A DNA stretch of 64,000 nt from Phycisphaerae bacterium (lineage in GTDB: Bacteria > Planctomycetota > Phycisphaerae > SM23-33), in contig JBNGDC010000005.1 in assembly GCA_049975485.1 (NCBI GenBank), positions 25,928 through 89,927 on the forward strand, given 5' to 3'. Below, piece by piece: positions 25,049 through 58,979 of this stretch; position 1 is the stretch's first letter; each line of letters starts with the position of its first letter. Both the position numbers and the translations under genes were made by a program. The notes beneath the pieces are model-generated. The model was not told where the DNA came from and did not search any database. It saw only the letters and a list, made by a program, of their open reading frames with translations.

Positions 25049-25054
25049 AGCTCC

Positions 25055-29201: not shown

Positions 29202-29230
29202 GGGGCGGTCCTTTCGCGGGCAGGCATCTG

Positions 29231-31454: not shown

Positions 31455-31501
31455 AATTACGGGCTTGACACTGGGTGTAATGGGACCATAAATGGTTGCT
31501 C

Positions 31502-32176
31502 ATGCCTAGAGTAGCAAGAGTTGTCATTCCGGGCTGTCCGCATCATGTTACTCAGCGGGGCAATAATCGGCAGGACGTGTTCTTCACCGACGACGACCGC
31601 CGCGCATATCTCGAAATTCTCCGCGAGCAGTGTGAACGCTTCGGTTTGGGCGTCCAGGCGTACTGCCTGATGACCAATCACATTCATCTGGTGGCTACAC
31701 CTGCGACAGGGGAATCCTTGGCCAAAGCCGTCGGACGGACGAACTGGCGCTACGCCCAGCATGTCAATAGGTGGCATGCCCGAAGCGGCCACTTGTGGCA
31801 GAATCGATTCTATTCGTGTCCGTTGGATGAGCAGCACTTCTGGACAGCCGTGACGTATGTCGAGCGCAACCCGGTACGCGCGGGAGTTGTGCGGGTTGCC
31901 TGGGAATATGCGTGGTCGAGTGCAGGCGCCCATGTGGGTGGTAGCGATCGGAGTGGGCTGCTGGATATCGCACAGTGGCGCGAATGGTTGCCCCGCGCCG
32001 GCGACTGGCGAGAAGCGCTGGGCAGACCCGGGGAGGCGGGGAGAGTTGAGCAACTCCGTGGTGCGACTATAGCGGGGCGACCGCTGGGCAGCGATGATTT
32101 CATTGCCAAGCTTGAAACAGCTATTGGACGTCGCCTGCGACGACTACCGGTTGGTCGCCCCAAAAGACGCAACTAA
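31502..32176 (+). CDS. REP-associated tyrosine transposase (IS200/IS605-like Y1, RayT/TnpA-REP type)
   Basis: MPRVARVVIPGCPHHVTQRGNNRQDVFF, the HUH motif in NHIHLV, and the catalytic Tyr context YVERNPVRAG. A TTGACA -35-like hexamer lies at 31465-31470. Confidence 0.85.
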   Translation: MPRVARVVIPGCPHHVTQRGNNRQDVFFTDDDRRAYLEILREQCERFGLGVQAYCLMTNHIHLVATPATGESLAKAVGRTNWRYAQHVNRWHARSGHLWQNRFYSCPLDEQHFWTAVTYVERNPVRAGVVRVAWEYAWSSAGAHVGGSDRSGLLDIAQWREWLPRAGDWREALGRPGEAGRVEQLRGATIAGRPLGSDDFIAKLETAIGRRLRRLPVGRPKRRN

Positions 32177-32389: not shown

Positions 32390-32470
32390 ACCAGAATTGC
32401 GGCGCGGGCCGTGCGCGGTGACCGCAGCCAGGCCCTTCGTAACGCCTCGGACGGACTGCCGGGGCAGGCA

Positions 32471-35167
32471 ATGCGAATCGACGGATCGATGGCAGAGACG
32501 GAGAATCCAAACACGGATCAGCCCCAGGGCGACGAGCCGGTCGAGCAGCCCGGCGACCAGGCCGACCCCGTCCAGGCGGACGAACCACAGGCCGGCGACC
32601 CGGCTGCCCCGGAGCAGGCCGACCAGACGCCGTCCGGTGGCGCAGACGATGCGCCGCAGGACGACGCGGCTCCTGCTGCCGAAGCCGACGACGCCACGGC
32701 CGAAGCTGCGCAGGACTCCCAACACGGACAGCAGGACGAGTCCGACGCAGCTTCCGGTCGGACGGCTGAGCCGCCGGCCGGGGAGCAGGCACCACCGGCG
32801 CCTGCCGCAGAGCAGACGGCGCCACCGTCGAATCAGCCGTCGGAAACCGCCGCTCAACCGCCGGATGCCTCCGTCGGTTTCGATACCTCGGCTTTTCTTG
32901 AGGAACACGAAACCCCGTGGCACAAGCGCGTCCCGCTGGTTCCTCTGTTGCTGGGTTTCAACACACTTGTCGTCTGCTTCCTGCTGGCGGTTATCGTCTT
33001 TGTGGTTACCGGAGGCCCGAAGACACCGCACGAGGCCTCCGCCTACACTTCCGACGAGTCGGCCGTGGTCAGCAGACCGGAACGTGACGGCGACGAATCT
33101 CCCATTGAGCCGCCCCGGGTGGAACCGCAGGCCTGGCAGAAGGCCGAGCGGGCGTTCAGGAACCAGGATTTTTCCGAGGCCCTGGGCTACTACGGCCACT
33201 TGCTGGATGCGGCGCAGGGTCGTCCGGTGGATGCGTTCGTGGTGGACTATCTGCGTCTGCGCAGCGGCGATTGCCTCATCCGGCTCGGTCGCAGCGACGA
33301 GGGCCGCGAGCTGCTCGAGCGCGTCAGCAGCAGCGGTTCGCCGATAGTGCGGGCCGTCTCAAACTATTTGCTGGCCGAGCTGGAGCTCAGAACGGAACGA
33401 TACCCGGCCGCCCGGCGGCGGGCTTACACGGCCATCGCGGCTTTGGGCGCGCTTGAGCGGGATATGCCGCTGGAGCGTGACTGCGACTACCTTATCGCGC
33501 GGGCGCTGACGGAAAGCGCCATGCGGTTCTTCAACCCCGACGAGCCGATTCCCTGGTCCGGATACAATGCCTCGGATCCCTTCACCGGCCTGGACGACTC
33601 CGCCTTGCGTCGCCTGCTGCACGATGGCGCCGAACGGATGGCCGAGTCGGTCCTTGGCCCGGAGGTCTCTCCCGCCCGGCGAACGGATGCGGCGCGGTTC
33701 TGGTCGGTAAGCTGCTGGCAGGCGACGCTGGAAGAAGTCCTCTACAGGTTTGCATCGGCCTGCGAAATGGACGTTCACTGGGCGTCGGCCGCCCCTCCCG
33801 TCCGTCAGAGAGGCATATCGCTGGCGTTCCGGGAGGTCGGCGAGCACCGCCTGTTCGAGGTGGCCTGCGGAATGGCCGGTCTGGTGGCGCGTTTCAATCG
33901 CGACGAGGTGGAAATATACGACGCCGACGCCATCAGCTCCCTGTCGGACAAGCGGGAGCTTCTCAAGGCCGAGGCCGTCTCCGTGTGGCGGCGGTTCTTC
34001 CTGCGGGCATCGGACGACCATCGTCTGCCGGTGGGGCACTTCGCGCTCGGGCGGCTCTACGAGTGTGCCGGAGAAACCGCCGACAGCATGCGCGAGTACC
34101 GGCTTACGGCCGGTCGCTTTCCACGTCACGAGCTGGCGCCGCGAGCTTTGTTGCGGAAGGCCCAGATACAGATATCTCTACGCGACTACACCGGCGCCCG
34201 CAACGATCTGCTGGACCTGCTGGATCTGTATCCGGACTACCCGGCCGTTGCGGACGTGTACCTCTATCTCGGGCGCAGCGCGCTGAAAACCGGGCTGTGG
34301 GACGAGGCGATCCGCACCTTCCGGAAACTCTACTACCTGGAGTTGTCCAAGGCCTCGCGACTGGAGGCGTGCCGGGGGGTGGCAAGGAGTTTCTTCGAGA
34401 AGGGCAACTACAGCGAGTCCCGCAATTGGTACGAGCGATACTTCCAGCAACTTGACGACCAGTCCGGAGAGGCGCCGGCCGAGGCGTTCCACACCTGGGG
34501 ACGCTGCGAATCGGCGTTGGGCAATCTCGACAGGGCGGCGGCGGCCTACCGCCTGGCTTTGGGGGCCGGTGGTCCGTCGGAGCTGCGCGCCCGCGCGTCG
34601 TTGGACCTGGCGGATGTCGAGCTGCAGAGGCAGAACTTCGTCGGCGCCCTGGGGCTGCTGAACGAACTGGATCCCACTTTGCTCGACGAGCAGCAGAACT
34701 ATGACCGCCTGAGGCTGCAGGCAAGGGCGCTTCGCGAGATGGGGTTGCCGTTGCGTGCCCGACGGATGCTTTCGCGTCACATGCCGGAGGTCTCCGACGC
34801 CCACCAGCGGGCCATGCTGGCTGTTGAGACCGCCAAATGCCTGGTGGACGAAGAAAAGGGCGACGAGGCCCGTGATGTGCTGGTCGGGGCACTTGGCGAG
34901 ATGACCCCCTGTGCGGAAAGCTACGAAGCCGCACTGTATCTCGCAAATCTGTGCCTTCAGGACGAGCGTTATCGCCAGGCCGCCGAGGTCGCAGAGACCT
35001 TGGTGAACAGCTCCGCCGGCGAACACATCCGCCGTCAGGCGCAGGAGCTTCTGGGCATGGCTCGCGCGTGCCAGCGGGACTACGGCGCCGCGGCGGAGGC
35101 ATTCTCGATGGACGACGATGAGTTCTCCACCGACGTGCCGGACGACGGCGAGGAGACCATGCCATGA
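32471..35167 (+). CDS. Large single-pass membrane TPR protein with an acidic/Pro-rich N-terminal tail and a possible STN-like insert
   Basis: ORF 32411..35167. I list the first ATG (MRIDGS), which lies downstream of the predicted TSS; the start is uncertain. About 130 aa of D/E/P/Q/A low complexity, then the TM helix VPLVPLLLGFNTLVVCFLLAVIVFVV, then many TPR-like helices. Residues encoded around 33710-33930 (ATLEEVLYRFASACEMDVHWAS...GLVARFNRDEVEIY) resemble a secretin/TonB N-terminal (STN) module. Confidence 0.7.
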   Translation: MRIDGSMAETENPNTDQPQGDEPVEQPGDQADPVQADEPQAGDPAAPEQADQTPSGGADDAPQDDAAPAAEADDATAEAAQDSQHGQQDESDAASGRTAEPPAGEQAPPAPAAEQTAPPSNQPSETAAQPPDASVGFDTSAFLEEHETPWHKRVPLVPLLLGFNTLVVCFLLAVIVFVVTGGPKTPHEASAYTSDESAVVSRPERDGDESPIEPPRVEPQAWQKAERAFRNQDFSEALGYYGHLLDAAQGRPVDAFVVDYLRLRSGDCLIRLGRSDEGRELLERVSSSGSPIVRAVSNYLLAELELRTERYPAARRRAYTAIAALGALERDMPLERDCDYLIARALTESAMRFFNPDEPIPWSGYNASDPFTGLDDSALRRLLHDGAERMAESVLGPEVSPARRTDAARFWSVSCWQATLEEVLYRFASACEMDVHWASAAPPVRQRGISLAFREVGEHRLFEVACGMAGLVARFNRDEVEIYDADAISSLSDKRELLKAEAVSVWRRFFLRASDDHRLPVGHFALGRLYECAGETADSMREYRLTAGRFPRHELAPRALLRKAQIQISLRDYTGARNDLLDLLDLYPDYPAVADVYLYLGRSALKTGLWDEAIRTFRKLYYLELSKASRLEACRGVARSFFEKGNYSESRNWYERYFQQLDDQSGEAPAEAFHTWGRCESALGNLDRAAAAYRLALGAGGPSELRARASLDLADVELQRQNFVGALGLLNELDPTLLDEQQNYDRLRLQARALREMGLPLRARRMLSRHMPEVSDAHQRAMLAVETAKCLVDEEKGDEARDVLVGALGEMTPCAESYEAALYLANLCLQDERYRQAAEVAETLVNSSAGEHIRRQAQELLGMARACQRDYGAAAEAFSMDDDEFSTDVPDDGEETMP

Positions 35168-35892
35168 ACCTGCGTGCATTGATCACATCGTCGGCGATTG
35201 TGTTGCTGACCGCGGCGTCCGGGCCGGCCGCGCCGGACGGGCAGCCCGCCGAGCGGGAGCCGCTGGACACCGAGTTGCATGAGCTTATCGAGACTGTCAG
35301 CGGCACCGCGCAGCAGCTCTGGCGCGAGAGCATAGAGGCCCCGCCGCAAGTTGACGGTTCGCGGCTGTCAGAAATGGTCGGCGAAATTCAGCTTCTACGT
35401 CTGGACCCAGAGGACGCGCTCAATCGGAGCCGGCAGACACAGGAGCCCGTGGCTTCCTCCCGGGAGCCGACGACCCGTCCCACTGCCGAAGAGCGGCCCG
35501 GCGACGGCCGCAGAGAGCAAGTAGCAGAGGAGGTGCTTGCGCAGTTGCAGGCCTCGGCTCCCAGAGACCCGGCCAGGGCGACGCAACTGGCGGACACGCT
35601 CTTTGCCGACGAGCACTACGAAGCTGCCTACGCGCTGTACGAGGCGGTCCTTGAGCATGAGACCTCCGAACAGCGGGCCTCTTGGCTGGTGTTCCAGATG
35701 GCCAACTGCAGGAAGTACAGTGACCCCGAAACCGCCCGGCAGCTCTATCTGCAACTTATTGAGCAGTACCCCAACAGCAGGTGGGTTGAGGCGGCCAGGG
35801 TGCAGGAGAAGATCATCCACTGGCAGCAGGTAAACGAGCCGCGGGCCGTGCTGCGGCAGGCCCGTGGAAACACCCGCAGAGACACTGATTAA
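35164..35892 (+). CDS. Secreted protein with a C-terminal TPR/YbgF-like region
   Basis: 242 aa. ATGA overlap with the upstream gene. Signal peptide MNLRALITSSAIVLLTAASGPAAP. ADTLFADEHYEAAYALYEAVLEH...LIEQYPNSRWVEAARV. Confidence 0.65.
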   Translation: MNLRALITSSAIVLLTAASGPAAPDGQPAEREPLDTELHELIETVSGTAQQLWRESIEAPPQVDGSRLSEMVGEIQLLRLDPEDALNRSRQTQEPVASSREPTTRPTAEERPGDGRREQVAEEVLAQLQASAPRDPARATQLADTLFADEHYEAAYALYEAVLEHETSEQRASWLVFQMANCRKYSDPETARQLYLQLIEQYPNSRWVEAARVQEKIIHWQQVNEPRAVLRQARGNTRRDTD

Positions 35893-40949: not shown

Positions 40950-41519
40950 GTGAGCCAGGTCGTGGAAATCAAGCTGCCCGCACCGCCGGCCGACGTGGGT
41001 ATCGCAGGCGCCGGCGGCGACGAATCACCTTCGCAGGCGGCCAACGAGCGGGCACTGGAGCAGCTCCGCGAGCAGATGAACCGCGAGCTTCAGAAGGAAC
41101 GGGCGGCTGTGGCTTCGTCGCAGAAGGCGCTGCGGGAAGCCGCCCGGCAATTGAACGAGATTCAGCAGCAGGTGGTCGCCGACGCAGAGCAGCAGCTTGT
41201 CGAGCTGGCCGTGGAGATAGCGGGTAAAATCCTGGCCCAGGAAATCAAGTCCCAGGGCTATGAGATCGACCCCATAGTCAAGGAAGCACTTTCCCAGGCG
41301 CCCACCCGCAAAAGCGTGGTGGTGCGTCTGAATCCCGAGGACCTGCCCCGCTGCGAACTGGCCGGCGGACAGGACGATTCCGACGCCGACATCCGCTTCG
41401 TGGCCGATGCTGGTGTTCCACCGGCTGGGTGCGTGGTGGAAACGGAAGAGGGAGTCGTGGAGTCCGACCCTCAGCAGCGGCTCAAGGACGTTGGCGAGAA
41501 CCTTAAGGAACCGGAATAA
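40950..41519 (+). CDS. fliH: Export ATPase regulator FliH
   Basis: 189 aa, GTG start. Coiled-coil, then LVELAVEIAGKILAQEI. Its position between fliG and fliI supports the call. Confidence 0.75.
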   Translation: MSQVVEIKLPAPPADVGIAGAGGDESPSQAANERALEQLREQMNRELQKERAAVASSQKALREAARQLNEIQQQVVADAEQQLVELAVEIAGKILAQEIKSQGYEIDPIVKEALSQAPTRKSVVVRLNPEDLPRCELAGGQDDSDADIRFVADAGVPPAGCVVETEEGVVESDPQQRLKDVGENLKEPE

Positions 41520-41521
41520 CC

Positions 41522-42913
41522 GTGGTCGTGGACCTGAGCAAATACCGCAGCAAGCTCCGGACGGTTGGTGCCGCGGCCTGTCGCGGGTCGGTGGTGCGCG
41601 TGGCCGGTCTGACCGTGGAATCCAAGGGTCCGCCCGTGGGTATCGGTCAACTGTGCGACATCCGGCTTTCCGACGGCAGGAGGATACCGGCCGAGGTAGT
41701 GGGCTTTCAGGACACGCACCGGATACTCGTGCCGCTGGAAGGCGTGGAGGGCATAGCCCCCAACGACCCGGTGCTGGTGCGCAGCTCGCCGCGGACGATA
41801 CGCCTGGACGATTCCATCCTGGGCCGTGTCATCGACGGTCTGGGCAGGCCCATCGACGGCAAAGGCCCGCTGTCCGGCGCCGAATACCGCTCCATCGAGA
41901 ACACCTCCCCGCCGCCGCTGGCGCGGAAGCGCATCACGGAACCGCTGGCGACCGGGATACGCGCCATCGACGGTATCATCACCTGCGGGCGCGGGCAGCG
42001 GATGGGCATATTCTCCGGCAGCGGCGTCGGAAAGAGCACGCTTCTCGGCGAGCTTGCCCGCACCAGCGACGCGGACGTAAACGTGCTGGCGCTGGTCGGC
42101 GAGCGAGGCCGGGAGGTCAGGCAGTTCCTGGAAGAGTCGCTTGGTCCGGACGGTCTGAGCCGAAGCGTGGTGGCCGTCGCCACCTCCGACGCTTCTCCCA
42201 TCCAGCGGGTAAAGGTGGCATTTACGGCCATCACCGTCGCGGAATATTTTCGCGACAAGGGCCTGAACGTGATGTTCATGATGGATTCGATTACGCGCTT
42301 CGCCCAGGCGCAGCGGGAGATCGGCCTGGCCGCCGGCGAGCCGCCCACCACCAAGGGATACTGTCCGAGCGTCTTCAGCTTGCTGCCGAAGCTGACCGAG
42401 CGTCTGGGCTGCGGTCAGACCGGCAGCATCACGGGAATGTTGACCATCCTGGTCGAGGGCGACGATCTGGCCGACCCGGTGGCCGACAGCGTGCGGTCGT
42501 TGCTGGACGGTCACGTGGTGCTCAGCCGCAAGCTTGCCGAGATGGGTCACTATCCGGCCATCGACATACTCCAGAGCGTCAGCCGGTTGATGAGCACGGT
42601 TGTGGACGAGGAGCACCGCCTTGCGGCCCAGCGGTTCCGCGCCATCTACGCCACGTACCTCGGGGCCGAGGACCTCATCAACATCGGAGCGCTGTCGCCG
42701 GGCAGCAATCAGCGGATAGACAAGGCGGTCTCGCTGATAGACCGGGTGAACGAGTTTCTGGTTCAGGACGTGGGCGAGCGGTCGGACTTTGTCGAGACGG
42801 TACGTCGCCTCAAGGACATAACGGCCTCGTGGGAATTCCTGTTGCCGACCGACGGTCAGGCCGCCAAGGCCGGCGCCGCGCAGGGCTCCCCGGCCGGTGA
42901 GGTGCGCCGATGA
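41522..42913 (+). CDS. fliI: Flagellum-specific ATPase
   Basis: 463 aa. Walker A GSGVGKSTLLGELAR, Walker B VMFMMDSITRFA. Confidence 0.95.
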   Translation: MVVDLSKYRSKLRTVGAAACRGSVVRVAGLTVESKGPPVGIGQLCDIRLSDGRRIPAEVVGFQDTHRILVPLEGVEGIAPNDPVLVRSSPRTIRLDDSILGRVIDGLGRPIDGKGPLSGAEYRSIENTSPPPLARKRITEPLATGIRAIDGIITCGRGQRMGIFSGSGVGKSTLLGELARTSDADVNVLALVGERGREVRQFLEESLGPDGLSRSVVAVATSDASPIQRVKVAFTAITVAEYFRDKGLNVMFMMDSITRFAQAQREIGLAAGEPPTTKGYCPSVFSLLPKLTERLGCGQTGSITGMLTILVEGDDLADPVADSVRSLLDGHVVLSRKLAEMGHYPAIDILQSVSRLMSTVVDEEHRLAAQRFRAIYATYLGAEDLINIGALSPGSNQRIDKAVSLIDRVNEFLVQDVGERSDFVETVRRLKDITASWEFLLPTDGQAAKAGAAQGSPAGEVRR

Positions 42914-43389
42914 AGCGTTTTCACTGGCGACTTCAGCGCGTGCTGGACGTAACGGTTCAGCGCGAAAAGGCGCTGCGGGCGGAGTTGTTCGCCCTCAGTC
43001 GGCGGATCGTGCGGCTTCGTCAGGAGATTATCCGCCGTCGGGCCGATTTGCGGAGTGTCCTGGCCGACCTGGGAGGCCGTCCACCGGCGGAGCGCATGGC
43101 GCGCCAGGAGGTGTTCATGCGATGTGCCGAGGCGGTCGAGCGCGAAATTGCCCGCCTCGACCGGGACGCTCGCGAACTGGAGTCACGCCGTTCGGAACGG
43201 ACCCAGACCTTCCTGCGGCTTCGGTCCAGCCGTCAGACGCTGGAGCGGATGCGCGAGGAGGCCTATCGCCAACATATGCGCGAGCAACTGAAAATGGAAC
43301 AGAAGCAGTTCGACGAGAGCGCACAGATTTCCTTCGCCCGAATGGCCTCTGCCGGCGCTGAGCCGGCGGCCGAAGGGAGCGGACAATAA
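42910..43389 (+). CDS. fliJ: Export chaperone/stalk protein FliJ
   Basis: 159 aa coiled-coil, MKRFHWRLQRVLDVTVQREKALRAEL. Its position after fliI supports the call. Confidence 0.75.
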   Translation: MKRFHWRLQRVLDVTVQREKALRAELFALSRRIVRLRQEIIRRRADLRSVLADLGGRPPAERMARQEVFMRCAEAVEREIARLDRDARELESRRSERTQTFLRLRSSRQTLERMREEAYRQHMREQLKMEQKQFDESAQISFARMASAGAEPAAEGSGQ

Positions 43390-44048
43390 TGAGCAAGAAG
43401 CTGCGGATAATGGTAATGGTCACCTTGGCTCTGGCGGCGTTCGGGGCATCGCTGATGTTCTCGTGGTCTCGCGGTTCCTCCGAACCTGCGGAGTCCGGCG
43501 AAGGCGAACCGGCCGGGCAGACCCGGGAGCCCTCGGGCGACCTCCTTGCGCAGTATGCCGAGAAGGCGTCCATGCAGCTGCAGCCCAGCGAGGCAGAATT
43601 GCACCAGCTCGTTCAGGACCTTCGCGAGAAGAGGCGGGAACTGGACCGTCGCCGACGCGAGTTGGACCAGCGCCAGCGCCAGATCGAACTGGCTGAGAAC
43701 CTCCTCAGCAAGCAGGCCGAAGAGCTGGAGAACCTGCGACTGGAACTGAATGCGCCTCTGGCGACGCTCAAGGAGGCCACCAGACAGCTCCAGGCGACAC
43801 GGGAGATCATCACCCGCAGCGAGCAGGCGAACCTTCAGGGCATTGCCGCCAAATACGAGCGTATGGACGAGAACGCCGGCAGCGAGATTCTGGTGAGCAT
43901 GTGCCGGAACGGTCAGGAATCCGACGTCGTGAAAATCCTATATTACCTTTCCGACCGCATGTCCGCGAAGATGCTCGGCGCAATCGAGGACCGGGAGCTG
44001 GCGGCGCGTCTGCTCGAACGGATGAAGCGAGTCGAGGAAGAGGGATAG
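43389..44048 (+). CDS. MotE/YlxF-like (MgtE_N-type) flagellar motility protein
   Basis: 219 aa. N-terminal TM, a coiled coil, then IAAKYERMDENAGSEILVSM...VVKILYYLSDRMSAKMLGAI. It occupies the same position as ylxF after fliJ in B. subtilis. Confidence 0.6.
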   Translation: MSKKLRIMVMVTLALAAFGASLMFSWSRGSSEPAESGEGEPAGQTREPSGDLLAQYAEKASMQLQPSEAELHQLVQDLREKRRELDRRRRELDQRQRQIELAENLLSKQAEELENLRLELNAPLATLKEATRQLQATREIITRSEQANLQGIAAKYERMDENAGSEILVSMCRNGQESDVVKILYYLSDRMSAKMLGAIEDRELAARLLERMKRVEEEG

Positions 44049-44824: not shown

Positions 44825-45490
44825 ATGATTCCCCGTCGCAGGAAAAAGACCAACGACGACTCAGCCCCCGGCTGCGGGTGGATGGTTACGTTCAGCGACT
44901 GCATGACGCTGCTGTTGTGCTTTTTTGTCATGCTGCTGACGTTCTCGGCATTCGACGAGAACCGTCTGGCCCAGTTCATGGGCGGGCTGAAGCTGATGGA
45001 CTACAACTCGCTGTTCCCGCCGGACGATACGCTGGTCAGTTCCATGGTTCCACCGCCGCCGCAGGAGGTGGACCGGACCCCCGAGGGAAGCGAAACACCG
45101 ACGGATGAGTTCCTGGAGGTGCTGGAGAATCCCCAGAAGTCGAGGGATCTGACCGACCCCGGGGCTTTCAGCGACCATAAGGTGTTTTACCTGCCGTCGA
45201 GCGAGATCTTCTGGGCGCAGGGCAGCGGCCTTACGCCCGGCGGGCGAGGCAAGCTGTCGCTGATAGCGGAGATGATGAAGCTCGTCCCCTCGCGCGTGGT
45301 GGTCCGCGAGATTGGTTCCGACGGGCGGACTCGCAGCGACGAGGCCGGTCTTGAAAGATGCAACGCTGTTGTTGATTTCTTCGCACGGCAGAGAGTCAGG
45401 CGGGACCTTCTGTTCGTCTCGGCCGACAGCTCGCCGGCGAAGCAGTCTGGCTGTATCGAAATATCGCTGTTGAAGCACGAGGAACGCTGA
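44825..45490 (+). CDS. motB: MotB paralog 1 (plug/TM with conserved Asp; degenerate OmpA-like domain)
   Basis: 221 aa. GCGWMVTFSDCMTLLLCFFVMLL. The C-terminal OmpA-like fold is present, but the LSxxRA peptidoglycan motif is poor (GLERCNAV). Confidence 0.8.
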   Translation: MIPRRRKKTNDDSAPGCGWMVTFSDCMTLLLCFFVMLLTFSAFDENRLAQFMGGLKLMDYNSLFPPDDTLVSSMVPPPPQEVDRTPEGSETPTDEFLEVLENPQKSRDLTDPGAFSDHKVFYLPSSEIFWAQGSGLTPGGRGKLSLIAEMMKLVPSRVVVREIGSDGRTRSDEAGLERCNAVVDFFARQRVRRDLLFVSADSSPAKQSGCIEISLLKHEER

Positions 45491-46245
45491 TGGCCGGCAG
45501 AGAGAGACAAAGCCGTCCGGACGACGATAATTCCAACGATACCCCCAGTTGGATTGTGTCATGGACGGATATGGTCACCCTGCTGCTGTCGTTCTTTGTG
45601 ATGCTACAGAGCATGGCCGTGGAAAAAAGCGACATGCTGTTCCAGATTGGCTGCGGGTCCTTCCTGCGGGCAGTGTCCGGATTCGGCATACCTGACTGGG
45701 TGTACGGCCACGAACCGCCGATGCCGAGCCGGCAATACAAGCGTGTCAGACACCCCATGGAGAGGCGCGAGGAGGCGCGCAGGGACAGGGTCATCGACGC
45801 CGAGGCCGAGCGGATCCGCGAGCTGTTTGTCCAGCTCCGCAACCAGGTCAAGACGGAGGCAAACGACCTGTCGGAAAGACCTTTGCGCTACGACGCCCTG
45901 GACGTGCGTTTTGCGGCCGGCGAGAGCGAAGCGGACGAAGCCCAACGCGAGTCGTTGCTCGATTACGCCGATACCCTCAAAAGGAATCTTGCGGGACGTC
46001 GAATTAACATATACGTGGTGGGTTTGGCGCCTGAGGTGACCGCATCCGGTGAGCGGGCGGTGGTTTCGGCGCGTCGCGCGCTGTCTGCCGCGAACGTACT
46101 GGGTCAGGCGCTGGCGGCCGAAACGGCCGGCGGACTCTGGGAGCTGCACTCCTGGGGAGCCGTGGACGGCTCCGGGTTGTGCCGCCGGGCCGGCGTCTCC
46201 GCGGGTGGGACGCAGCTCGTGGTGATGATTACGGAAGCGAAGTAG
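45490..46245 (+). CDS. motB: MotB paralog 2 (conserved Asp; better OmpA-like motif)
   Basis: 251 aa. TPSWIVSWTDMVTLLLSFFVMLQ. The C-terminus VRFAAGESE...INIYVVG...VSARRALSAANVL. Start overlaps the stop of paralog 1 (TGATG). Confidence 0.75.
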   Translation: MAGRERQSRPDDDNSNDTPSWIVSWTDMVTLLLSFFVMLQSMAVEKSDMLFQIGCGSFLRAVSGFGIPDWVYGHEPPMPSRQYKRVRHPMERREEARRDRVIDAEAERIRELFVQLRNQVKTEANDLSERPLRYDALDVRFAAGESEADEAQRESLLDYADTLKRNLAGRRINIYVVGLAPEVTASGERAVVSARRALSAANVLGQALAAETAGGLWELHSWGAVDGSGLCRRAGVSAGGTQLVVMITEAK

Positions 46246-50800: not shown

Positions 50801-51886
50801 ATGGCCGAACAGGATCAATCTTCAGCCGACCGGACCGAGGAACCAACACCGGAAAGGTTGCGGCGCGCACGCGAGCAGGGACAGGTTCCCCAGAGCAAGG
50901 AGGTGCCCTCGGCGCTTCTGCTGCTGGTGTTGCTGCTGCTGATGGCGGCGTTGGCTCCGATGCTCTATGAGTACTTCCACACGCTGATTACCGACTCGCT
51001 GACATTCGACAGGGTCGGACCCAACACTTCGGACGCCTTCATGCAGGTCTTCCGCGACAAGAGCCGGGCCACCATGCTCATGCTGGTTCCCTTCCTCGTG
51101 GTGGGGATGGCGGTATCGGCATTGAGCAGCGTGCTGGTCGGCGGATGGGCCTTTTCGCCCAAGGGCATCCGCCTGAACCTGAACCAGATCAACCCTGTCC
51201 GCGGCTTCAAGCAGCTCTTCTCACTCAAATCGGTCATGAACCTCGTCGTCTCGGTGCTCAAGCTGACACTGGTACTGGTGCTGGTGTACAGCTTCGTACG
51301 CGGCAAGCTCGACGAGATAGTCGCACTGGAATGGACGACGGCCGAGGGGCTGTTGGTGGCGATTTCGCGTCTGGTGTTCTCCCTGGTCATCCGCATCGTG
51401 GCGGGACTGTTGCTGATTGCGGGCATCGACTGGCTCTACCAGAAGTGGAACTACAAGCGTCAACTGCGAATGACCCGCCGGGAGATAAAAGAGGAGCGCA
51501 AGCAGTACGAGGTGTCCCCGGAATACCGCGGCCGCATCCGCCAGGTGCAGATGAGCATGGCGCGGAAGCGCATGCTCCAGTCGGTCCCCGATGCGGACGT
51601 GGTGGTGACCAACCCCGAACACGTGGCCGTGGCGCTGAAATACGACTCCGACGAGATGGAAGCCCCGCAGGTGGTCGCCAAGGGCGCGGACCTGCTGGCC
51701 GGCAGGATCCGCGAAATAGCCCGCGCCCACGACGTGCCCATCGTACGACGGCCGGAACTGGCGAGGACACTCTACGCCGGCTGCGAGGTGGGCGAGTTCG
51801 TGCCCGAGACGCTCTACCTGGCGGTTGCCGAAGTGCTGGCGACCATCTATCGCCTCCGCCGCAAGGCGCCCAGTAACGCAAGATGA
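50801..51886 (+). CDS. flhB: Export switch protein FlhB
   Basis: 361 aa. DRTEEPTPERLRRAREQGQVPQSKE, RMTRREIKEERKQYEVSPE, and an autocleavage-site variant NPEH. Confidence 0.95.
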   Translation: MAEQDQSSADRTEEPTPERLRRAREQGQVPQSKEVPSALLLLVLLLLMAALAPMLYEYFHTLITDSLTFDRVGPNTSDAFMQVFRDKSRATMLMLVPFLVVGMAVSALSSVLVGGWAFSPKGIRLNLNQINPVRGFKQLFSLKSVMNLVVSVLKLTLVLVLVYSFVRGKLDEIVALEWTTAEGLLVAISRLVFSLVIRIVAGLLLIAGIDWLYQKWNYKRQLRMTRREIKEERKQYEVSPEYRGRIRQVQMSMARKRMLQSVPDADVVVTNPEHVAVALKYDSDEMEAPQVVAKGADLLAGRIREIARAHDVPIVRRPELARTLYAGCEVGEFVPETLYLAVAEVLATIYRLRRKAPSNAR

Positions 51887-54012
51887 GTGAAGAGACCCAA
51901 CAACTCGGAACGTACCTGCTGGACCGGTCGAACAGCCGGCTGACGCGCATGCTGGCCCACAACGACATCATGTTCGCCATCGGGCTGGGCATGGTGCTGG
52001 CCACGCTGTTGATACCGCTGCCCACGTTCATGCTGGACATGATGCTGTCCATCAGCATCGCGGTCGCGGTCGCCACGATGGTGGTGGTGCTGAGTACCGA
52101 GGAACCCATCCAGTTCTCGGCGTTTCCTTCGCTTCTGCTGTTCGTGACGCTGTTCCGCCTGTCGCTGAACGTGGCATCAACGCGCCTGATACTGCTGCAG
52201 GGCGACGCCGGCAGGATCATCGCCACGTTCGGGCACTTTGTGGTCGGCGGCAACATGGTCATCGGACTGGTGGTGTTCCTGATCCTGGTGATCATCCAGT
52301 TCGTGGTCATCACCAAGGGCGCCGAGCGCATCAGCGAGGTGGCCGCCCGCTTCAACCTCGACGCCATGCCGGGCAAGCAGATGGCCATCGACGCCGACCT
52401 CAACGCCGGGCTTATCGGCGAGAGGGACGCCAAGTATCGACGCGAGAAGATCGTCGCCGAAAGCGAGTTCTACGGCTCCATGGACGGTGCCAGCAAGTTC
52501 ATCCGCGGCGACGCCATCGCCGGTCTGGTGATAACGGCCGTCAACCTTATCGGCGGCTTCCTCATCGGCATCACCCGCGGCATGACACCGGCCGAGTCCG
52601 TCTCGACGTACTCCATACTCGCCGTCGGCGACGGTCTGGTAACGCAGATACCCGCCATCGTCATTGCGACCTCGGCGGGCTTCCTCATCAGCAAATCCTC
52701 CAGCCACCAGAGCTTGAGCCAGGAGCTGGTGCGGCAGTTCCTCGCGCGGAGCCGCCCGTTGGGTGTGGCGGCGTTCCTATTTGCGGCCATGGTGTTCGTG
52801 CCGAATTTCCCCAAGGTTCCCTTCGTCGTCCTGGCGCTGGGGACGGGGTTGCTGTCGCGGGCGCTTGCCCGACTGGAGCAGCAGTCCCGCCAGGCCGCCC
52901 GCAAGAGCGAGCAGAAGGAAGAATCCGAGGAGCAGCCGGTCGAAGAACTGCTGGACGTGGACACACTGTCCGTCCAGGTGGGACCGCGGCTGATACAGAC
53001 CGTGGACCCGCGGCGGAAGGGCAGCTTATCGCAGCGCATCAAGCCGCTGCGGCGTAAATTCGCCGAGCAGTACGGCATCGTCCTGCCGCTGGTGCGGCTG
53101 CGTGACAACGTTTCGCTGGACCCGAACGTCTATCAGATACGCCTGTACAACCACGTGGTCGCGGAGGGTCGGCTGGAGCCGGACAAGTTGCTGGCGATGG
53201 ACCCCGGAACCGTGCAGAAGCGCGTGGACGGACAGGCCGCCGAAGAGCCTGTCTTCAACCTGCCGGCTTTGTGGATCTCCAGGGACAAGAAGGACGAGGC
53301 CGAGATGGCCGGCTATACCGTCGTGGACCCCGAGACGGTGATGGTTACCCACCTGTCCGAGACGCTGCGCCGGCACGCCCACGAGCTGCTCAGTCGCGAC
53401 GACGTGCAGCAACTGGTGGACCGCCTGCGGGCGAAGCAGCCCGCCCTGGTGGATACGGTCGTCGGCGACCTGGTTCCGCTGGGCCTGCTGCACCGCGTGT
53501 TGCAGCGTCTGTTGGCCGACGGCATCCCCATCCGCGACCTCAAGCAGATACTCGAGACGCTCGGCGACCACGCCGCCCAGACAAAGGATCCCGTCGCGCT
53601 TACCGAGCGGGTTCGCAAGGCCATCGCGCGTGCCATTACCGAGCAGCACCGCAACGCGCAGGGCTGCCTGGAGGCGATTACGCTCGACACATCACTGGAG
53701 TACGACCTTCGCAGCAAGGCCTCCCAGGACGCCGACGGACTGTCGGTGGACCCCAACCGTGCGTTGGCGCTTATCCAGCGTATCGCCGATGTGTGGAAAG
53801 AGGCGATGGCCGCCGGACACGACAAGGTTGTTCTGCTGTGTGATTCACGCATTCGGCCGCACCTGGCGGCCATGCTCAGCCGCCAGATACCCCAGCTTCC
53901 GGTACTGGCGTACGACGAGATTGAGACCGGCAGCAACGTTCAGACCGTGGGAACGGTAACGCTTGAGACAGAGGCGACGGCAAGCGCGGCTTCGCTGAAG
54001 GCGAGCAACTGA
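51883..54012 (+). CDS. flhA: Export gate protein FlhA
   Basis: 709 aa. FVVGGNMVIGLVVFLILVIIQFVVITKGAERISEVAARFNLDAMPGKQMAIDADL. Confidence 0.95.
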   Translation: MSEETQQLGTYLLDRSNSRLTRMLAHNDIMFAIGLGMVLATLLIPLPTFMLDMMLSISIAVAVATMVVVLSTEEPIQFSAFPSLLLFVTLFRLSLNVASTRLILLQGDAGRIIATFGHFVVGGNMVIGLVVFLILVIIQFVVITKGAERISEVAARFNLDAMPGKQMAIDADLNAGLIGERDAKYRREKIVAESEFYGSMDGASKFIRGDAIAGLVITAVNLIGGFLIGITRGMTPAESVSTYSILAVGDGLVTQIPAIVIATSAGFLISKSSSHQSLSQELVRQFLARSRPLGVAAFLFAAMVFVPNFPKVPFVVLALGTGLLSRALARLEQQSRQAARKSEQKEESEEQPVEELLDVDTLSVQVGPRLIQTVDPRRKGSLSQRIKPLRRKFAEQYGIVLPLVRLRDNVSLDPNVYQIRLYNHVVAEGRLEPDKLLAMDPGTVQKRVDGQAAEEPVFNLPALWISRDKKDEAEMAGYTVVDPETVMVTHLSETLRRHAHELLSRDDVQQLVDRLRAKQPALVDTVVGDLVPLGLLHRVLQRLLADGIPIRDLKQILETLGDHAAQTKDPVALTERVRKAIARAITEQHRNAQGCLEAITLDTSLEYDLRSKASQDADGLSVDPNRALALIQRIADVWKEAMAAGHDKVVLLCDSRIRPHLAAMLSRQIPQLPVLAYDEIETGSNVQTVGTVTLETEATASAASLKASN

Positions 54013-54041
54013 GGCGCTGCCGTTACAGATGACGGAGAGAC

Positions 54042-54278
54042 GTGAGACAGGCATCGGTCATCATGGCGGTCATCGGCTTTTTCGTGGTGGCCTTCGTGGG
54101 CACGGTCAGCGGCGTGCCGGCGCACGTGTGCAGTCTGCGAGCACTGGCCGGCGCCGCGGTGATGTACGTGTTGACCCGCTTCTGTGGCCAGGTGGTCGTA
54201 CGTGTGGTGGCCGACGCCGCGGTCCGCAGCATGAACCTGCAACAGCAAAAGGGCGCCAGTGACAACAGCAGAGAGTAA
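54042..54278 (+). CDS. Small two-TM membrane protein, unknown function
   Basis: 78 aa (GTG start; an alternative ATG lies at 54063). VIMAVIGFFVVAFVGTVSGV and LAGAAVMYVLTRFCGQVVV. It overlaps the fliA start by 20 nt and sits where flhF/flhG are often found. Confidence 0.4.
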   Translation: MRQASVIMAVIGFFVVAFVGTVSGVPAHVCSLRALAGAAVMYVLTRFCGQVVVRVVADAAVRSMNLQQQKGASDNSRE

Positions 54279-55041
54279 AACCCAGACCGGACCCGACGAC
54301 GCGCTGAGGGCACGTGCGACACAAGTGTACGCCCAGCAGTCGCGACAGGCCCGCGAGCAGCAGTGGATACTACAGTATCTCCCGCTGGTCCGGCACGTGG
54401 TGTCCAAGGTTACGGCCCGGCTGTCGCACCGCAGGGACATCGACGACCTGATATCCGCCGGGACGCTGGGGCTGGTAAAGGCGGCCCGGGCATACGACCC
54501 CTCGCAGGAAACCTCGTTCAAGACCTACGCCTATATCCGCATCCGCGGGGCGGTGATCGACGAACTGCGGGGGCGGACCTTTGCACCGGCCGGCATCCAC
54601 GCCCGCGTGAGGCAGGCCAAGGAGGCCTACGAGCAGTGCGTCGCCGAGCTGGGCAGGCCCCCCGCGGACGAAGAGCTGGCCGAGAAATTGAAGGTCTCGC
54701 TCGATGAGCTTTACAGCATGTTCGAAGACATGCGGAAGCAGCACTTTCTGTCGATCCACGGGCTAAGCGACGAGGAGCCGGCGCTTATGGAGCGACTGGC
54801 ACCCACGGACGACGAACCATCCCCCGCCGACAAGGCCGAGCGTAAGGAAACCCTCGAGCGACTGGTCAAGGCCATCCGTGAGTTGCCCGAGCGCGACCGC
54901 ATCGTGATTCTCCTGTACTACGAGCGCGATTTGACCATGAAGGAAGCGGCCGAGGTGCTCGAGGTTACCGAGTCGCGGGTCAGTCAGTTGCACGCCGGGG
55001 CACTGTTCAAACTGGCTATGAAGCTCAGGGAGGCATCGTGA
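54259..55041 (+). CDS. fliA: Flagellar sigma factor sigma-28
   Basis: 260 aa. YLPLVRHVVSKV, DLISAGTLGLVKAARAYDP...FKTYAYIRIRGAVIDELR, and the region 4 motif MKEAAEVLEVTESRVSQLH. Confidence 0.9.
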   Translation: MTTAESKTQTGPDDALRARATQVYAQQSRQAREQQWILQYLPLVRHVVSKVTARLSHRRDIDDLISAGTLGLVKAARAYDPSQETSFKTYAYIRIRGAVIDELRGRTFAPAGIHARVRQAKEAYEQCVAELGRPPADEELAEKLKVSLDELYSMFEDMRKQHFLSIHGLSDEEPALMERLAPTDDEPSPADKAERKETLERLVKAIRELPERDRIVILLYYERDLTMKEAAEVLEVTESRVSQLHAGALFKLAMKLREAS

Positions 55042-55352
55042 TGGCCGGGTCCGACTATTCATTGCGGGGTGCGGGCGAGATACGCGGTTTGCCGTCGGTC
55101 GCCCAGCACGACAGCGGCGTCCGTGACCGGGGCCCGAAACGCATCCAGCGCCGTCGGCAAAAGCGGCGTCGCCGGGAAGATGCCGAGCAGGAACCGGCCG
55201 AGACGCCGGAAGAGCTTGAGGAGCCGTTCGAGATTGTTGAGCCGGACGACCAGGGCGGGCAGAAGCAGGACCGCTCCGACGACAAAGACGGGCAGGATGA
55301 TGACGCCGGACGGGACGACCGCGAGCCGCCCAAGGTGGACATTTATGCATAA
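55041..55352 (+). CDS. Highly charged disordered protein (basic patch plus acidic tail), translationally coupled to fliA
   Basis: 103 aa. The ATG shares its A with the fliA TGA (GTGATG). GGGAGG SD 8 nt upstream. High GC3. RIQRRRQKRRRRED, then an E/D/P-rich tail. Confidence 0.55.
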   Translation: MAGSDYSLRGAGEIRGLPSVAQHDSGVRDRGPKRIQRRRQKRRRREDAEQEPAETPEELEEPFEIVEPDDQGGQKQDRSDDKDGQDDDAGRDDREPPKVDIYA

Positions 55353-55406
55353 GCTGATTTCAGGACAAGGCCTATGGTCGGCTAGGTGCCGGCATGGGGA
55401 GGCGAA

Positions 55407-55679
55407 ATGAGCCATTCATCGCCTCTGATACTGAAGAAGGGCGAGTTTCGCACCGGCGGTCCCCGGGCGTTGCCGGTGCCCGGCGCGGGCGGGGTGGCGA
55501 CGCCGTCGGCCAGGGCCAGGATTACCCGCAAGACCGCCGACGGTGCGGTCATAGAAGTCATATGCGGCTGCGGACAGCGCATCGAGCTGCACTGCCGGTG
55601 GGACGCACCGGTCGCCGCCTCCGCCGGCGCCGAAGGTCAACAAGGAAACGGACAGCCAACAGTTCAGGAGCAGGGATGA
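55407..55679 (+). CDS. Small protein with a CGCG...C motif, unknown function
   Basis: 90 aa from MSHSSPLILKKGEF (GGGGAGG SD 5 nt upstream). ADGAVIEVICGCGQRIELHCRW. The stop overlaps the next start (ATGATGA). Confidence 0.5.
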   Translation: MSHSSPLILKKGEFRTGGPRALPVPGAGGVATPSARARITRKTADGAVIEVICGCGQRIELHCRWDAPVAASAGAEGQQGNGQPTVQEQG

Positions 55680-56245
55680 TGAGAAATACAATGGTGTTAA
55701 TAACGGCTGCACTGGTTCTTGCAGCGGTCGGTTGCGACGAGCAGATGTCCTACCGGGACCGCACCCCGCCGCCGAACGCATCCCAGCCGGCCCGGGGCAA
55801 CGTGGAATACCTGGCCGATTCCTCGGTGGCTCGCGACGATGAAAGCTCCGCTTCGCCGTCGGCCGTTGAGGACGCTCTGCGGTGGTCGCGGAAGTATTCC
55901 GAGACGGCCGAGAAACTGGTCTCCGCCCAGCAGGAGCTGCACAGCGCCAGAGAGGAGAAGCAGGAGCTTCTGGCTCAGGTGGCCCGGCTTCAGACGGAGC
56001 TGGACCGCGCCAAGCAGGAACTGCGTGAGGCCAACCAGATGCTCATCGAGATGCGGGAGGAGCTGAACCACTGGAAGACAAACGTCCTGGGCTATCGCGA
56101 CGAGATGCTCCGTGCACAGGAAGCCCAGCTTGAGCGTCTCCAGGAGATCATCGAACTCCTCGGCGGACATGTCCCGCCGCCGGCGGGCGAAGCGGCCGAG
56201 GCGGACGCGGGCGAAGAAGGAGCCGGCAGTGCAAGCGCCTCTTAG
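55676..56245 (+). CDS. Coiled-coil lipoprotein, unknown function
   Basis: 189 aa. MMRNTMVLITAALVLAAVGC (lipobox), followed by a long heptad region (ELHSAREEKQELLAQVARLQTELDRAKQELREANQMLIEMREEL). Confidence 0.6.
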   Translation: MMRNTMVLITAALVLAAVGCDEQMSYRDRTPPPNASQPARGNVEYLADSSVARDDESSASPSAVEDALRWSRKYSETAEKLVSAQQELHSAREEKQELLAQVARLQTELDRAKQELREANQMLIEMREELNHWKTNVLGYRDEMLRAQEAQLERLQEIIELLGGHVPPPAGEAAEADAGEEGAGSASAS

Positions 56246-56957
56246 CAAAGAAATTGCGTTTATACTGGCAGCGGCTCTCTCGGCCATGACTGCGGGCTGC
56301 GGGCCCGAGGCGACCGAACCGGCGGCGATCGGGCACTATCTGCACTCGCCCGAAAGCGTCTCCAGACTCGGGCGGGTGGTATTTGTGGAACTGGGCGACC
56401 GCGGCGGCGATGAGGAATTTGCCCAGACCATGACCGATGCCATCAGCCGGTCTGTTCGCGACAGGAAGCTTTTCCATGTCGATGTGCTCCGGCGGAGCGA
56501 GCCGGTCTGCCGCATACTGCCGGTGGACAAGCGCAGCGCCCTTACCTATCAAGAGGTTATGGAGATGCGCCGTCTGCTCAACTGCGAGGCCGTATTGTTC
56601 GGCTGGGTGGACCGCTACTCGCCGTATCCGCACATGGAAACGGGCATTTACCTGCGATTGCTGGACTTGAACCGCGGGCAGGTGGTCTGGGGTGTGGATC
56701 ACGTCTGGGATACGGGCGACAAGAGTGTCGAGCGGCGTATACGGGATTTCTACTACGCCGAATCCGCCGACGGCCTGGAGCCGGCCGAGTGGCGTCTGGC
56801 GCTGATGAGTCCGCGGGCGTTCGGGCGATTCGTTGCCTTCGAGATCGGTCGGACACTGCCGAACTCCGAGTCGGCCGAAGCGCTGGACGAGCGGGTGCGG
56901 CGCGAGAAACGTCGCCGGGTGCTCGAAGAAATGGGTGAGAAACTGGAAGATTTGTAG
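56229..56957 (+). CDS. Lipoprotein with a possible LpoB/CsgG/FlgO-like fold, unknown function
   Basis: 242 aa, GTG start. IAFILAAALSAMTAGC (lipobox). GRVVFVELGDRGGDEEFAQTMTDAISRSV...CEAVLFGWVDRY...IYLRLLDLNRGQVVWG resembles the alpha/beta sandwich pattern of that family; this was judged by eye only. Confidence 0.55.
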   Translation: MQAPLSKEIAFILAAALSAMTAGCGPEATEPAAIGHYLHSPESVSRLGRVVFVELGDRGGDEEFAQTMTDAISRSVRDRKLFHVDVLRRSEPVCRILPVDKRSALTYQEVMEMRRLLNCEAVLFGWVDRYSPYPHMETGIYLRLLDLNRGQVVWGVDHVWDTGDKSVERRIRDFYYAESADGLEPAEWRLALMSPRAFGRFVAFEIGRTLPNSESAEALDERVRREKRRRVLEEMGEKLEDL

Positions 56958-56967: not shown

Positions 56968-56994
56968 TCAAGCACACGCCGCGTGTCGCGAAAA
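56968..56994 (+). promoter_or_regulatory. Weak sigma-28-like promoter in front of flgM
   Basis: TCAAGCAC-N11-CGCGAAAA, compared with the two stronger local sites TCAAGTTC-N11-T(C/T)CGATAA. It would give a near-leaderless flgM transcript. Confidence 0.3.
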
Positions 56995-57001: not shown

Positions 57002-57307
57002 GTGCAGACGATGGGAGACAGTCCGGTGCGTATAGACGGCATACAAGGTCATCAGGCCCATAGACCCGACGATCGCAGCGCATTATCTCGGCCTGCGGGA
57101 ATCGAGCGCGATACCTCCGCCGGCAAGGCCGTTGACAGTTCGGGCATTCTTGCGGAGGTTCGCCCCTACATAGAGTCCGCCCGCAAGACCGAAGAGGTCA
57201 ACGCCCAGGCCGTCGCCGAGGCGAAGGAAATGCTCGCCTCCGGTCAACTGCAAAGCCCCGACGCCCTGAGACGAGCGGCCGAGGCAATTCTCTCCAGGGA
57301 TTTCTAG
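57002..57307 (+). CDS. flgM: Anti-sigma-28 factor FlgM
   Basis: About 98-101 aa (GTG at 57002 or ATG at 57011). The C-terminus EEVNAQAVAEAKEMLASGQLQSPDALRRAAEAIL fits the FlgM sigma-28-binding helices. Confidence 0.7.
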   Translation: MQTMGDSPVRIDGIQGHQAHRPDDRSALSRPAGIERDTSAGKAVDSSGILAEVRPYIESARKTEEVNAQAVAEAKEMLASGQLQSPDALRRAAEAILSRDF

Positions 57308-57465
57308 CTTACCCGGCGGCGCGTCTCAGAACGCTTCATGCCCTCGCCCGGGGAAGCCCCCAATCGTAAGTTTCCAGTGATGGCTCGCGGTATGCGCAGG
57401 GGCTACGGCGGGTCCTGATCCCGCCAGTTGGTCCGGCAAAAACCGGCAAAGTCTTACCGCCCTTG

Positions 57466-57487
57466 GAATCCGCGGGGATTTTTTTTT
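57466..57487 (+). terminator. Short hairpin plus T9 terminator downstream of flgM
   Basis: GAATCC-GCGG-GGATT followed by TTTTTTTTT. The stem is only 5-6 bp. Confidence 0.45.
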
Positions 57488-57498: not shown

Positions 57499-57525
57499 TC
57501 AAGTTCGCCACCTTCGCTCCGATAA
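57499..57525 (+). promoter_or_regulatory. Sigma-28 (FliA) promoter of the flagellin gene
   Basis: TCAAGTTC-N11-TCCGATAA compared with the enteric consensus TAAAGTTT-N11-GCCGATAA. It implies a ~145-nt 5' UTR. Confidence 0.7.
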
Positions 57526-58858: not shown

Positions 58859-58979
58859 CCGTAAACGGACGGACTTTCTCCGGAGGCGGCCCCGCCGCCT
58901 AAAAATTGAACGTGAGCCCCGATAGTACAGGCGGGGCCCGCCTTCGGGGAAATCCGAGAAAATGCAGATAGCTGCACAG

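Follow-up and report, generated by a model that had tools for sequence, protein, structure and literature searches.

What does a planctomycete encode between the gene for its flagellar sigma factor, sigma-28 (fliA), and the likely gene for the anti-sigma factor that controls it (flgM)? The question is raised by a stretch of 64,000 nucleotides from a Phycisphaerae bacterium (NCBI GenBank assembly GCA_049975485.1, contig JBNGDC010000005.1, forward-strand positions 25,928 to 89,927), which we call the window and whose first letter is position 1 below. On its + strand fliA is followed by four open reading frames (ORFs), named o1 to o4 here, which an original prediction made from the letters alone had been unable to assign to any known flagellar family. 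All four are present where, and in the frames in which, that prediction had placed them, and none of them reaches a curated Pfam or NCBIfam threshold. They are o1 (55041–55352), a charged protein of 103 amino acids that looks intrinsically disordered; o2 (55407–55679), a 90-amino-acid protein with three cysteines and no signal peptide; o3 (55676–56245), a predicted coiled-coil lipoprotein of 189 amino acids; and o4 (56229–56957), a predicted lipoprotein of 242 amino acids with a GTG start and a predicted TolB-N-like fold. The four ORFs are genuine, conserved, unannotated genes, and they form a lineage-specific, flagellum-restricted module of Phycisphaerae and related Planctomycetota. We favour, with a confidence only somewhat better than even, the view that they constitute a conserved lineage-specific set of flagellar accessory genes that would be expressed from the export-gate/fliA operon fliOPQR-flhBA-flgV-like-fliA-o1-o2-o3-o4-flgM.

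Conservation and synteny of the four genes

A motif scan with one genome per GTDB species gave 26 related loci, labelled mostly as Phycisphaerae or Planctomycetota bins (five carry the label "uncultured Anaerolineales"), and in essentially all of them tblastn with the window proteins finds the gene order fliR-flhB-flhA-small transmembrane (TM) ORF-fliA-(o1)-o2-o3-o4-flgM-flagellin-fliD. More remote context comes from seven metagenome contigs (L028–L034), which represent about four distinct places. L031 has the order flhB-flhA-fliA-o1-o2-o3-o4, L033/34 have sigma-54 activator-fliL-fliM-fliN-flhA-flgV-like-fliA-o1-o2-o3-o4-flgM, and L032 has flhF-flhG-flgV-like-fliA-o1-o2-o3. The marine contigs L028–L030 carry o2-o3-o4, without fliA or o1, directly upstream of flgB-flgC-fliE-fliF-fliG-fliH-fliI. 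The trio has been relocated intact beside flgB in these contigs. Thus o2, o3 and o4 travel together, without leaving flagellar clusters, and the tie of o1 is specifically to fliA. Linkage to flagellar genes is exclusive in all of the loci examined, the 26 genome loci and the seven metagenome contigs alike. In the L028–L030 lineage a gene for a 378-amino-acid leucine-rich-repeat protein (about 1126–2262 of L028) lies immediately 5' of o2, in the place of fliA and o1.

Codon-aligned comparisons gave ratios of nonsynonymous to synonymous substitution (dN/dS) of 0.13–0.41 across the four genes, which indicates purifying selection on all of them; the value is about 0.17 for o1 (measured against its two nearest relatives, L002 and L003), 0.23–0.41 for o2, 0.13–0.22 for o3 and 0.16–0.26 for o4. 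The G+C content at third codon positions is 0.74–0.76 in o1 to o4, compared with 0.81–0.86 in fliA, flhB and flhA. In the NCBI record of the source, o2, o3, o4 and flgM are annotated with the boundaries given here and o1 is apparently uncalled; in a Logan contig that is 97.7% identical, o1 is called as a gene. Looking up contigs by exact match to the o2 and o4 of the window gave no entry. A scan of the whole window against Rfam found no RNA family.

The gene orders also bear on the idea that the module sets how many flagella are made or where they stand, or serves as a polar landmark, and so takes over the function of FlhF/FlhG. As that idea would have it, no SRP54-type or ParA-type gene is present between flhA and fliA in the window, and o1 and o2 are small cytoplasmic proteins encoded beside fliA. 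However, contig L032 has flhF and flhG immediately upstream of its flgV-fliA-o1-o2-o3 array, so the module coexists with FlhF/FlhG there, and in the source genome these two genes could lie elsewhere. We therefore regard this idea as very unlikely. (The usual place of flhF and flhG is between flhA and fliA, and neither gene is there in the window, in positions 51883 to 55041.)

The lipoproteins o3 and o4 and the linked small protein o2

By the lipobox criterion [LVI][ASTVI][GAS]C, o3 and o4 are both predicted to be bacterial lipoproteins, substrates of Lsp and Lgt, and the two lipoboxes named in the original prediction, AAVGC and MTAGC, were found as described. In o3 a signal peptide and lipobox (…LAAVGC, with Cys20) are present in 27 of 27 sequences, and in o4 (…MTAGC, with Cys24) the G-C pair is nearly invariant in 36 sequences. 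The residue at position +2 after the lipid-bearing cysteine, read from the alignments, is Asp or Glu in 14 of 27 o3 sequences as against about 1 of 35 o4 sequences. Beyond its lipobox o3 has a low-complexity linker rich in Pro and Ser, then the conserved motif AVE-x-AL-x-W-x-EKY, and some 100 residues of coiled coil, which include the strongly conserved L-x-E-A-N-x-M-L-x-E-M-R-x-E-L-x-x-W-K-x-N-V-L-G-Y-R-x-E-M and end in L-L-G-G-E. Searches of o3 against Pfam and NCBIfam returned only sub-threshold, generic coiled-coil noise (ATG16, SMC), and it has no match in the PDB. PDB searches with o1 to o4 gave nothing meaningful; matches to xylose isomerase and eIF2-beta at E values of about 1 are ascribed to chance.

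A single-sequence search with o4 found 43 homologues, all unnamed or "hypothetical" and none with a Pfam domain. With a full profile the family proved far larger, at 1305 cluster representatives with E ≤ 1e-3 and 130 with E ≤ 1e-30. The window protein itself has no Pfam match at E ≤ 1 and no NCBIfam match, and its PDB profile search was empty. Among the members of its alignment the only Pfam matches are sub-threshold ones to GNA1162-like, LpoB and CsgG, of which GNA1162-like (PF05643) is the most frequent (4 of 36, best E 0.001), and when remote relatives are included the sub-threshold matches comprise GNA1162-like, LpoB, CsgG, TolB_N, LptE and FlgO. The gathering score of LpoB (PF13036) is not reached (best E 0.012–0.11, in a few members); FlgO (PF17680) matches none of the 36 family members, and one remote relative (P0225) matches it at E 0.0013 with 19 bits, below the 22.6-bit cut-off. 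By sequence definition, then, o4 is outside FlgO, PelC/GNA1162, LpoB and CsgG.

Structure prediction places it closer to them. The AlphaFold (AF2) model of o4 has a mean predicted local distance difference test score (pLDDT) of 89 and a predicted template-modelling score of 0.79, and its best Foldseek matches in the PDB are to the PelC dodecamer (5t10/5t11, E 7e-8 to 1e-6, target template-modelling score 0.6–0.69), on which it superposes over about 132 aligned columns with a root mean square deviation of 3–4 Å. Further matches are GNA1162 (4hrv, E 8e-6), FlgT (3w1e, 3e-5), CT253 (6uxc, 4e-5) and LpoB (1e-4), and others are Geobacter PelC, PelBC, a chain of the Vibrio LPHT ring (8z5n), CsgG, TolB and DUF330. 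The core of o4 (about residues 36–161) is modelled as the TolB-N-like alpha/beta fold of PelC, GNA1162, LpoB, CsgG and the FlgT N-domain, and the earlier impression, formed by eye, that this core is LpoB/CsgG/FlgO-like was right at the level of the fold and is echoed by the weak Pfam matches. Residues from about 165 to 241 are modelled as extra helices that are absent from PelC, and the C-terminus carries a semi-conserved acidic-hydrophobic peptide, EKLEDL. CT253 is a hypothetical protein of Chlamydia trachomatis, which also belongs to the Planctomycetota-Verrucomicrobiota-Chlamydiota (PVC) superphylum; it has no detectable sequence similarity to o4.

That PelC is the top structural match of o4, and GNA1162-like (PF05643) its most frequent weak Pfam match, could be taken to mean that o4 and o3 work like PelC in exopolysaccharide export or another secretion pathway and are only hitch-hiking in a flagellar operon. 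The similarity of o4 to PelC/GNA1162 in sequence is, however, below every curated threshold, no pel or other polysaccharide-export genes stand beside the module in any locus examined, and all 26 genome loci and all of the remote contigs place o4 among flagellar genes. This explanation is poorly supported, and we consider it extremely improbable.

In another explanation o3 and o4 would not be stable structural parts but envelope-remodelling or assembly factors, needed only while the rod and the LP (L and P) rings cross the cell wall, for example as an LpoB-like regulator of a peptidoglycan synthase or hydrolase, or as a chaperone or pilot for FlgH/FlgI. The fold matches of o4 do include the LpoB C-domain and TolB-N, with weak LpoB and TolB_N echoes in Pfam; the module sits with early-class export-gate genes; and the flagellar clusters of the window showed no FlgJ-like muramidase, in a search that was not exhaustive. 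On the other hand, the best fold matches are to ring-forming PelC and not to LpoB (E 7e-8 versus 1e-4), no enzyme gene adjoins o3 or o4, and a long, conserved coiled-coil partner together with the strict linkage of o2, o3 and o4 looks more like a complex than like a transient factor. A role in assembly or peptidoglycan remodelling remains realistic, if on the whole unlikely.

The third member of the unit, o2, has 33 homologues, every one of them "hypothetical", and no Pfam relative was found for the window protein or for any member of its alignment. It has a conserved cysteine motif, C53-x-C55-G56-x6-C63, and the peptide VICGCGQRIELHC singled out in the original prediction is present. Alignment A2 (25 sequences) shows no variation at M1, K10, C53, C55, G56 or C63; in alignment A3 (33 sequences) the invariant residues are C53, C55 and G56 only, with C63 in at least 90%, and the o2 of L032 has lost C63. 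The consensus reads V-L-K-K-x-x-V … A-R-I-V-x-Q-x-x-x-x-A-V-I-E-V-T-C-x-C-G-x-x-x-x-L-x-C. In an AF2 model built with 33 sequences the motif is carried on a three-stranded beta-meander, in that residues 36–64 are predicted to form a three-stranded antiparallel sheet (block-mean pLDDT about 83–96) with disordered flanks, the N-terminal V-L-K-K being followed by a disordered linker. Foldseek found nothing below E of about 1 for this model, and a PDB profile search was also empty.

The fliA-coupled gene o1 and expression of the module

The ATG of o1 shares one base with the stop codon of fliA (TGATG), and this arrangement is widely kept: among the 25 genome loci that cover the 3' end of fliA, 24 have a + strand ORF of 69–99 amino acids starting at or over the fliA stop, the start overlaps or abuts that stop in most loci, and an o1 equivalent is also present in L031–L033. 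The homologues are only 14–60% identical to one another, yet they keep their terminal peptide motifs. The protein begins with M-T-x-x-S-D-Y-x-V and contains E-[IV]-x-G-x-x-P-[VI], a basic cluster (the RIQRRRQKRRRRE patch of the original prediction, followed as described by an acidic tail), an acidic tract and a C-terminal D-H-x-[VI]-D-x-[LY]-A. It has no hydrophobic segment and no relative in Pfam, NCBIfam or the PDB. To judge from its sequence, o1 looks intrinsically disordered and conserved only in the short terminal peptides and the basic cluster. Neither o1 nor o2 is a member of any family described so far.

It might be supposed that o1 is non-functional, either a spacer ORF that couples ribosomes from fliA to the genes downstream or the shadow of a true gene on the other strand. 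It is low in complexity and charged, it is uncalled in the source record, the locus L011 lacks it, and the region also contains an antisense ORF of 118 amino acids (55059–55415) with a hydrophobic stretch and a profile of G+C over the three codon positions identical to that of o1. Since composition is the same on both strands, it cannot decide which of them is coding. The dN/dS values do separate them, with about 0.17 in the + frame compared with 1.4–2.1 in the open antisense frame (both against L002/L003), and the N- and C-terminal motifs of o1 are kept at 14–60% identity. A non-functional o1 is therefore poorly supported and, in our view, highly improbable. As for the antisense "membrane-like" ORF as the true gene, it was ruled out by its dN/dS of 1.4–2.1 and by the lack of conservation of antisense ORFs.

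The claim that the four genes have good ribosome sites agrees with direct reading, which finds a GGAGG/GGGAGG Shine-Dalgarno-like motif ahead of every start. The further claim that they are translationally chained holds for three of the five junctions, namely fliA/o1 (one base of overlap), o2/o3 (an overlap as ATGA) and o3/o4 (a 17-nucleotide overlap, where the GTG start is required for o4 to have its signal peptide). It does not hold for the passages from o1 to o2 and from o4 to flgM, which are gaps of 54 and 53 nucleotides, respectively.

Co-transcription with fliA, which had also been proposed, is in keeping with genes that overlap or lie close together and with the lack of any convincing terminator between 48.3 and 57.4 kb, and it is plausible that fliA-o1-o2-o3-o4(-flgM) are transcribed together. 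In a terminator scan of 47.5–59.5 kb, the one match that combines a hairpin with many consecutive T residues and does not fall in a coding frame is on the + strand at 57461–57486, where the hairpin is followed by T9. Its fold energy is unremarkable (z −0.3), and it is the probable end of the transcription unit. The sigma-54 promoter proposed at 48357 does lie between genes, ahead of fliO, but it has one mismatch, and such matches occur at chance frequency (7 found in the window, 5.2 expected). Just beyond the hairpin, upstream of the flagellin gene, is a sigma-28-type promoter on the + strand (TCAAGT-N15-CCGATA, 57499–57524), and this motif is kept in 14 of 17 related loci. A similar site, TAAAA…CCGATA, is found at 58900–58924 (+), upstream of fliD (59131). 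A weaker sigma-28-like candidate upstream of flgM (TCAAG-N15-CGCGAAA, 56968–56993, +), found by pattern matching, is poorly supported as a promoter: a comparable site is present in only 5 of 20 related loci and is absent from the closest relatives.

What might the four proteins do together? Synteny and fold suggest that o3 and o4 probably build or scaffold a periplasmic or outer-membrane structure of the motor, beside the canonical LP rings. Both FlgH and FlgI are encoded in the window, so canonical L and P rings are present, and o3 and o4 would be additions to them and not replacements. In such a structure a lipid anchor would hold o4 to a membrane on its periplasmic side, and o4 would oligomerise around the rod/LP-ring region, as do, in their own settings, the PelC 12-mer and the CsgG 9-mer, which have the same fold, and the Vibrio H-ring proteins. 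The coiled coil of o3, with its approximately 100 residues, would be about 15 nm long and could serve as a periplasmic strut or as an adaptor to o4; the +2 residues, if they are sorted as in E. coli, would put o3 in the inner membrane and o4 in the outer. The small protein o2 would be an obligate partner of o3 and o4, whether as a subunit or as a factor for assembly. The stop/start overlap would allow o1 to be made in a fixed ratio with sigma-28, and the target of o1 might be sigma-28 itself or the step at which it is handed over to FlgM and the export gate. The most detailed version of these ideas, in which o3 would be an inner-membrane coiled coil spanning the periplasm to an outer-membrane ring of o4, o2 would be exported through the flagellar type III gate to become a disulfide-linked subunit, and o1 would be a new disordered sigma-28 regulator or export adaptor kept at 1:1 by the stop/start overlap, is rather improbable as a whole.

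Several points weigh against a flagellar accessory module of this kind. The placement of all four proteins at the motor comes from synteny and fold, the formation of a ring by o4 is assumed, and the operon structure is read from the DNA sequence. The TolB-N-like fold is also found outside flagella, in PelC (polysaccharide export), LpoB (which activates a peptidoglycan synthase) and CsgG (curli). Neither o1 nor o2 has a signal peptide, and a complex of either with the periplasmic lipoproteins would need export. The Lol +2 rule is that of E. coli and may not apply to planctomycetes. For o1, locus L011 is an exception, with a 42-nucleotide gap after fliA and no o1. Profile and PDB searches showed no likeness of o1 to any sigma-binding protein and no similarity to a FlgM profile, and hhalign gave a probability of 1.4%, that is, no relation, when o1 was compared with the local FlgM family. 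The one basis for thinking that o1 may modulate sigma-28 is its conserved translational coupling to fliA.

Flagellar surroundings and known systems

The identity of fliA (54259–55041, +) is clear: the ORF matches TIGR02479 (FliA/WhiG) above the curated threshold (E 4e-66, 223 bits, cut-off 189.6) and has Sigma70 r2, r3 and r4 domains. On the other side of the module, the flgM-like anti-sigma-28 gene (57011–57307, +, 98 amino acids) matches TIGR03824 only weakly (E 0.011, 16.5 bits, cut-off 40.75), but related loci keep the position of this ORF and its FlgM-like helical C-terminus, AVAEAK-LL-SG-LDTPEAARRAAE; its place before flagellin and the conserved C-terminus both favour its being FlgM. Between flhA and fliA lies an ORF of 78 amino acids (54042–54278, +) with two hydrophobic helices, an Arg in the second of them and a polar tail. 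Its position is kept in most related loci, its dN/dS is 0.17–0.26 and it has no Pfam match. These features agree with the published account of FlgV, a recently recognised small flagellar protein with two TM segments that is found next to sigma-28 in PVC bacteria, Phycisphaerae among them, and whose conservation goes with that of sigma-28 in PVC phyla and others (Zamba-Campero et al. 2024, PMC11607428). The ORF is likely to be a FlgV homologue, and we leave it outside the four-gene finding: FlgV is a 2-TM protein with its gene upstream of fliA, and none of o1 to o4 is similar to it.

The remainder of the window is rich in flagellar genes. The + strand carries two sigma-54 activators, fliF, fliG, motA, two motB-like genes, fliL, M, N, O, P, Q and R, and flhB and flhA, and a second, divergent cluster on the − strand (13943–27485) carries flgE, flgF, flgG, flgH, flgI, a flgN-like gene, flgK and flgL. 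The − strand cluster also holds a 385-amino-acid ORF without assignment (23891–25048), and then a gene for a fusion of a glycosyltransferase with tetratricopeptide repeats (TPR) at 13943–15025. Where the flagellar region begins, an IS200/Y1-type transposase ORF (31496–32176, +) stands between a sigma-54 activator gene (29115–31406) and genes for large TPR proteins (32411–35892), and there is an exact sigma-54 consensus, TGGCAC-N5-TTGC, at 32374. The two motB-like ORFs that follow motA are adjacent (44825–45490 and 45490–46245, +; 221 and 251 amino acids); at E ≤ 1e-4 they match only MotB_plug, and no OmpA-type peptidoglycan-binding domain was detected. In the stretch from fliG to motA, the 219-amino-acid ORF before motA (43389–44048, +) has no Pfam match at E ≤ 1e-4 and may be another lineage-specific flagellar gene. 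The ORF at 41407–42900 (+) also has no match at that threshold and is probably a wrong-frame call over a likely fliI (41522–42913).

Flagellar motors vary by lineage through added rings and disks, such as the H and T rings of Vibrio, the basal disk of Campylobacter and the collar of spirochetes, and such additions alter torque, stability and the penetration of the outer membrane. Specialists expect lineage-specific motor additions in understudied phyla, and the candidates described here are well delimited and directly testable: four concrete genes with exact boundaries and motifs, two of which (o1 and o2) represent families without a recognisable relative, and whose alignments can serve as seeds for new protein-family models. 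In addition, sigma-28 may have a new partner in o1, in a lineage whose flagellar hierarchy (sigma-54, then sigma-28) still awaits study. In full-text literature searches no account of these genes came up, nor any of motor accessory proteins specific to PVC bacteria or planctomycetes, apart from the FlgV paper.

How do the four genes compare with systems that are known? In other bacteria different genes directly follow fliA, fliZ in E. coli and swrB in B. subtilis. o1 differs from SwrB in lacking a TM segment and from the regulator FliZ in lacking a DNA-binding domain. It is coupled translationally to fliA and, like FlgM, is small and apparently disordered, but a separate flgM gene is present. 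The predicted alpha/beta fold of o4 is common to LpoB, CsgG and the TolB N-domain, and LpoB and CsgG are also lipoproteins; these proteins, however, act in other contexts (activation of PBP1B, curli secretion and Tol-Pal, respectively), and o4 reaches the threshold of none of their families. PelC/GNA1162 (PF05643) resembles o4 in fold and in being a lipoprotein, and PelC forms a 12-mer ring on the inner face of the outer membrane; o4 differs in being about 100 residues longer, in a sequence match that is sub-threshold and in having no pel operon around it. The closest parallel in a flagellar setting is the Vibrio H-ring, in which the outer-membrane lipoproteins FlgO and FlgP, with FlgT, surround the LP rings (bioRxiv 10.64898/2025.12.02.691832). 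Like FlgO, FlgP and FlgT, o3 and o4 are encoded in flagellar loci and would be lineage-specific additions in the periplasm or at the outer membrane; they too are predicted to have a lipid anchor at an N-terminal Cys and coexist with FlgH and FlgI, and the o4 model matches the structure of FlgT (3w1e, and 8z5n in the LPHT ring). There are also differences: o4 is predicted to have extra C-terminal helices, members of its family lie below the FlgO gathering score, and the genes are placed between fliA and flgM. Finally, where the partners in the Vibrio structure are FlgP, FlgT, MotX and MotY, those encoded with o4 are a predicted coiled-coil lipoprotein and a mini-protein with three cysteines.

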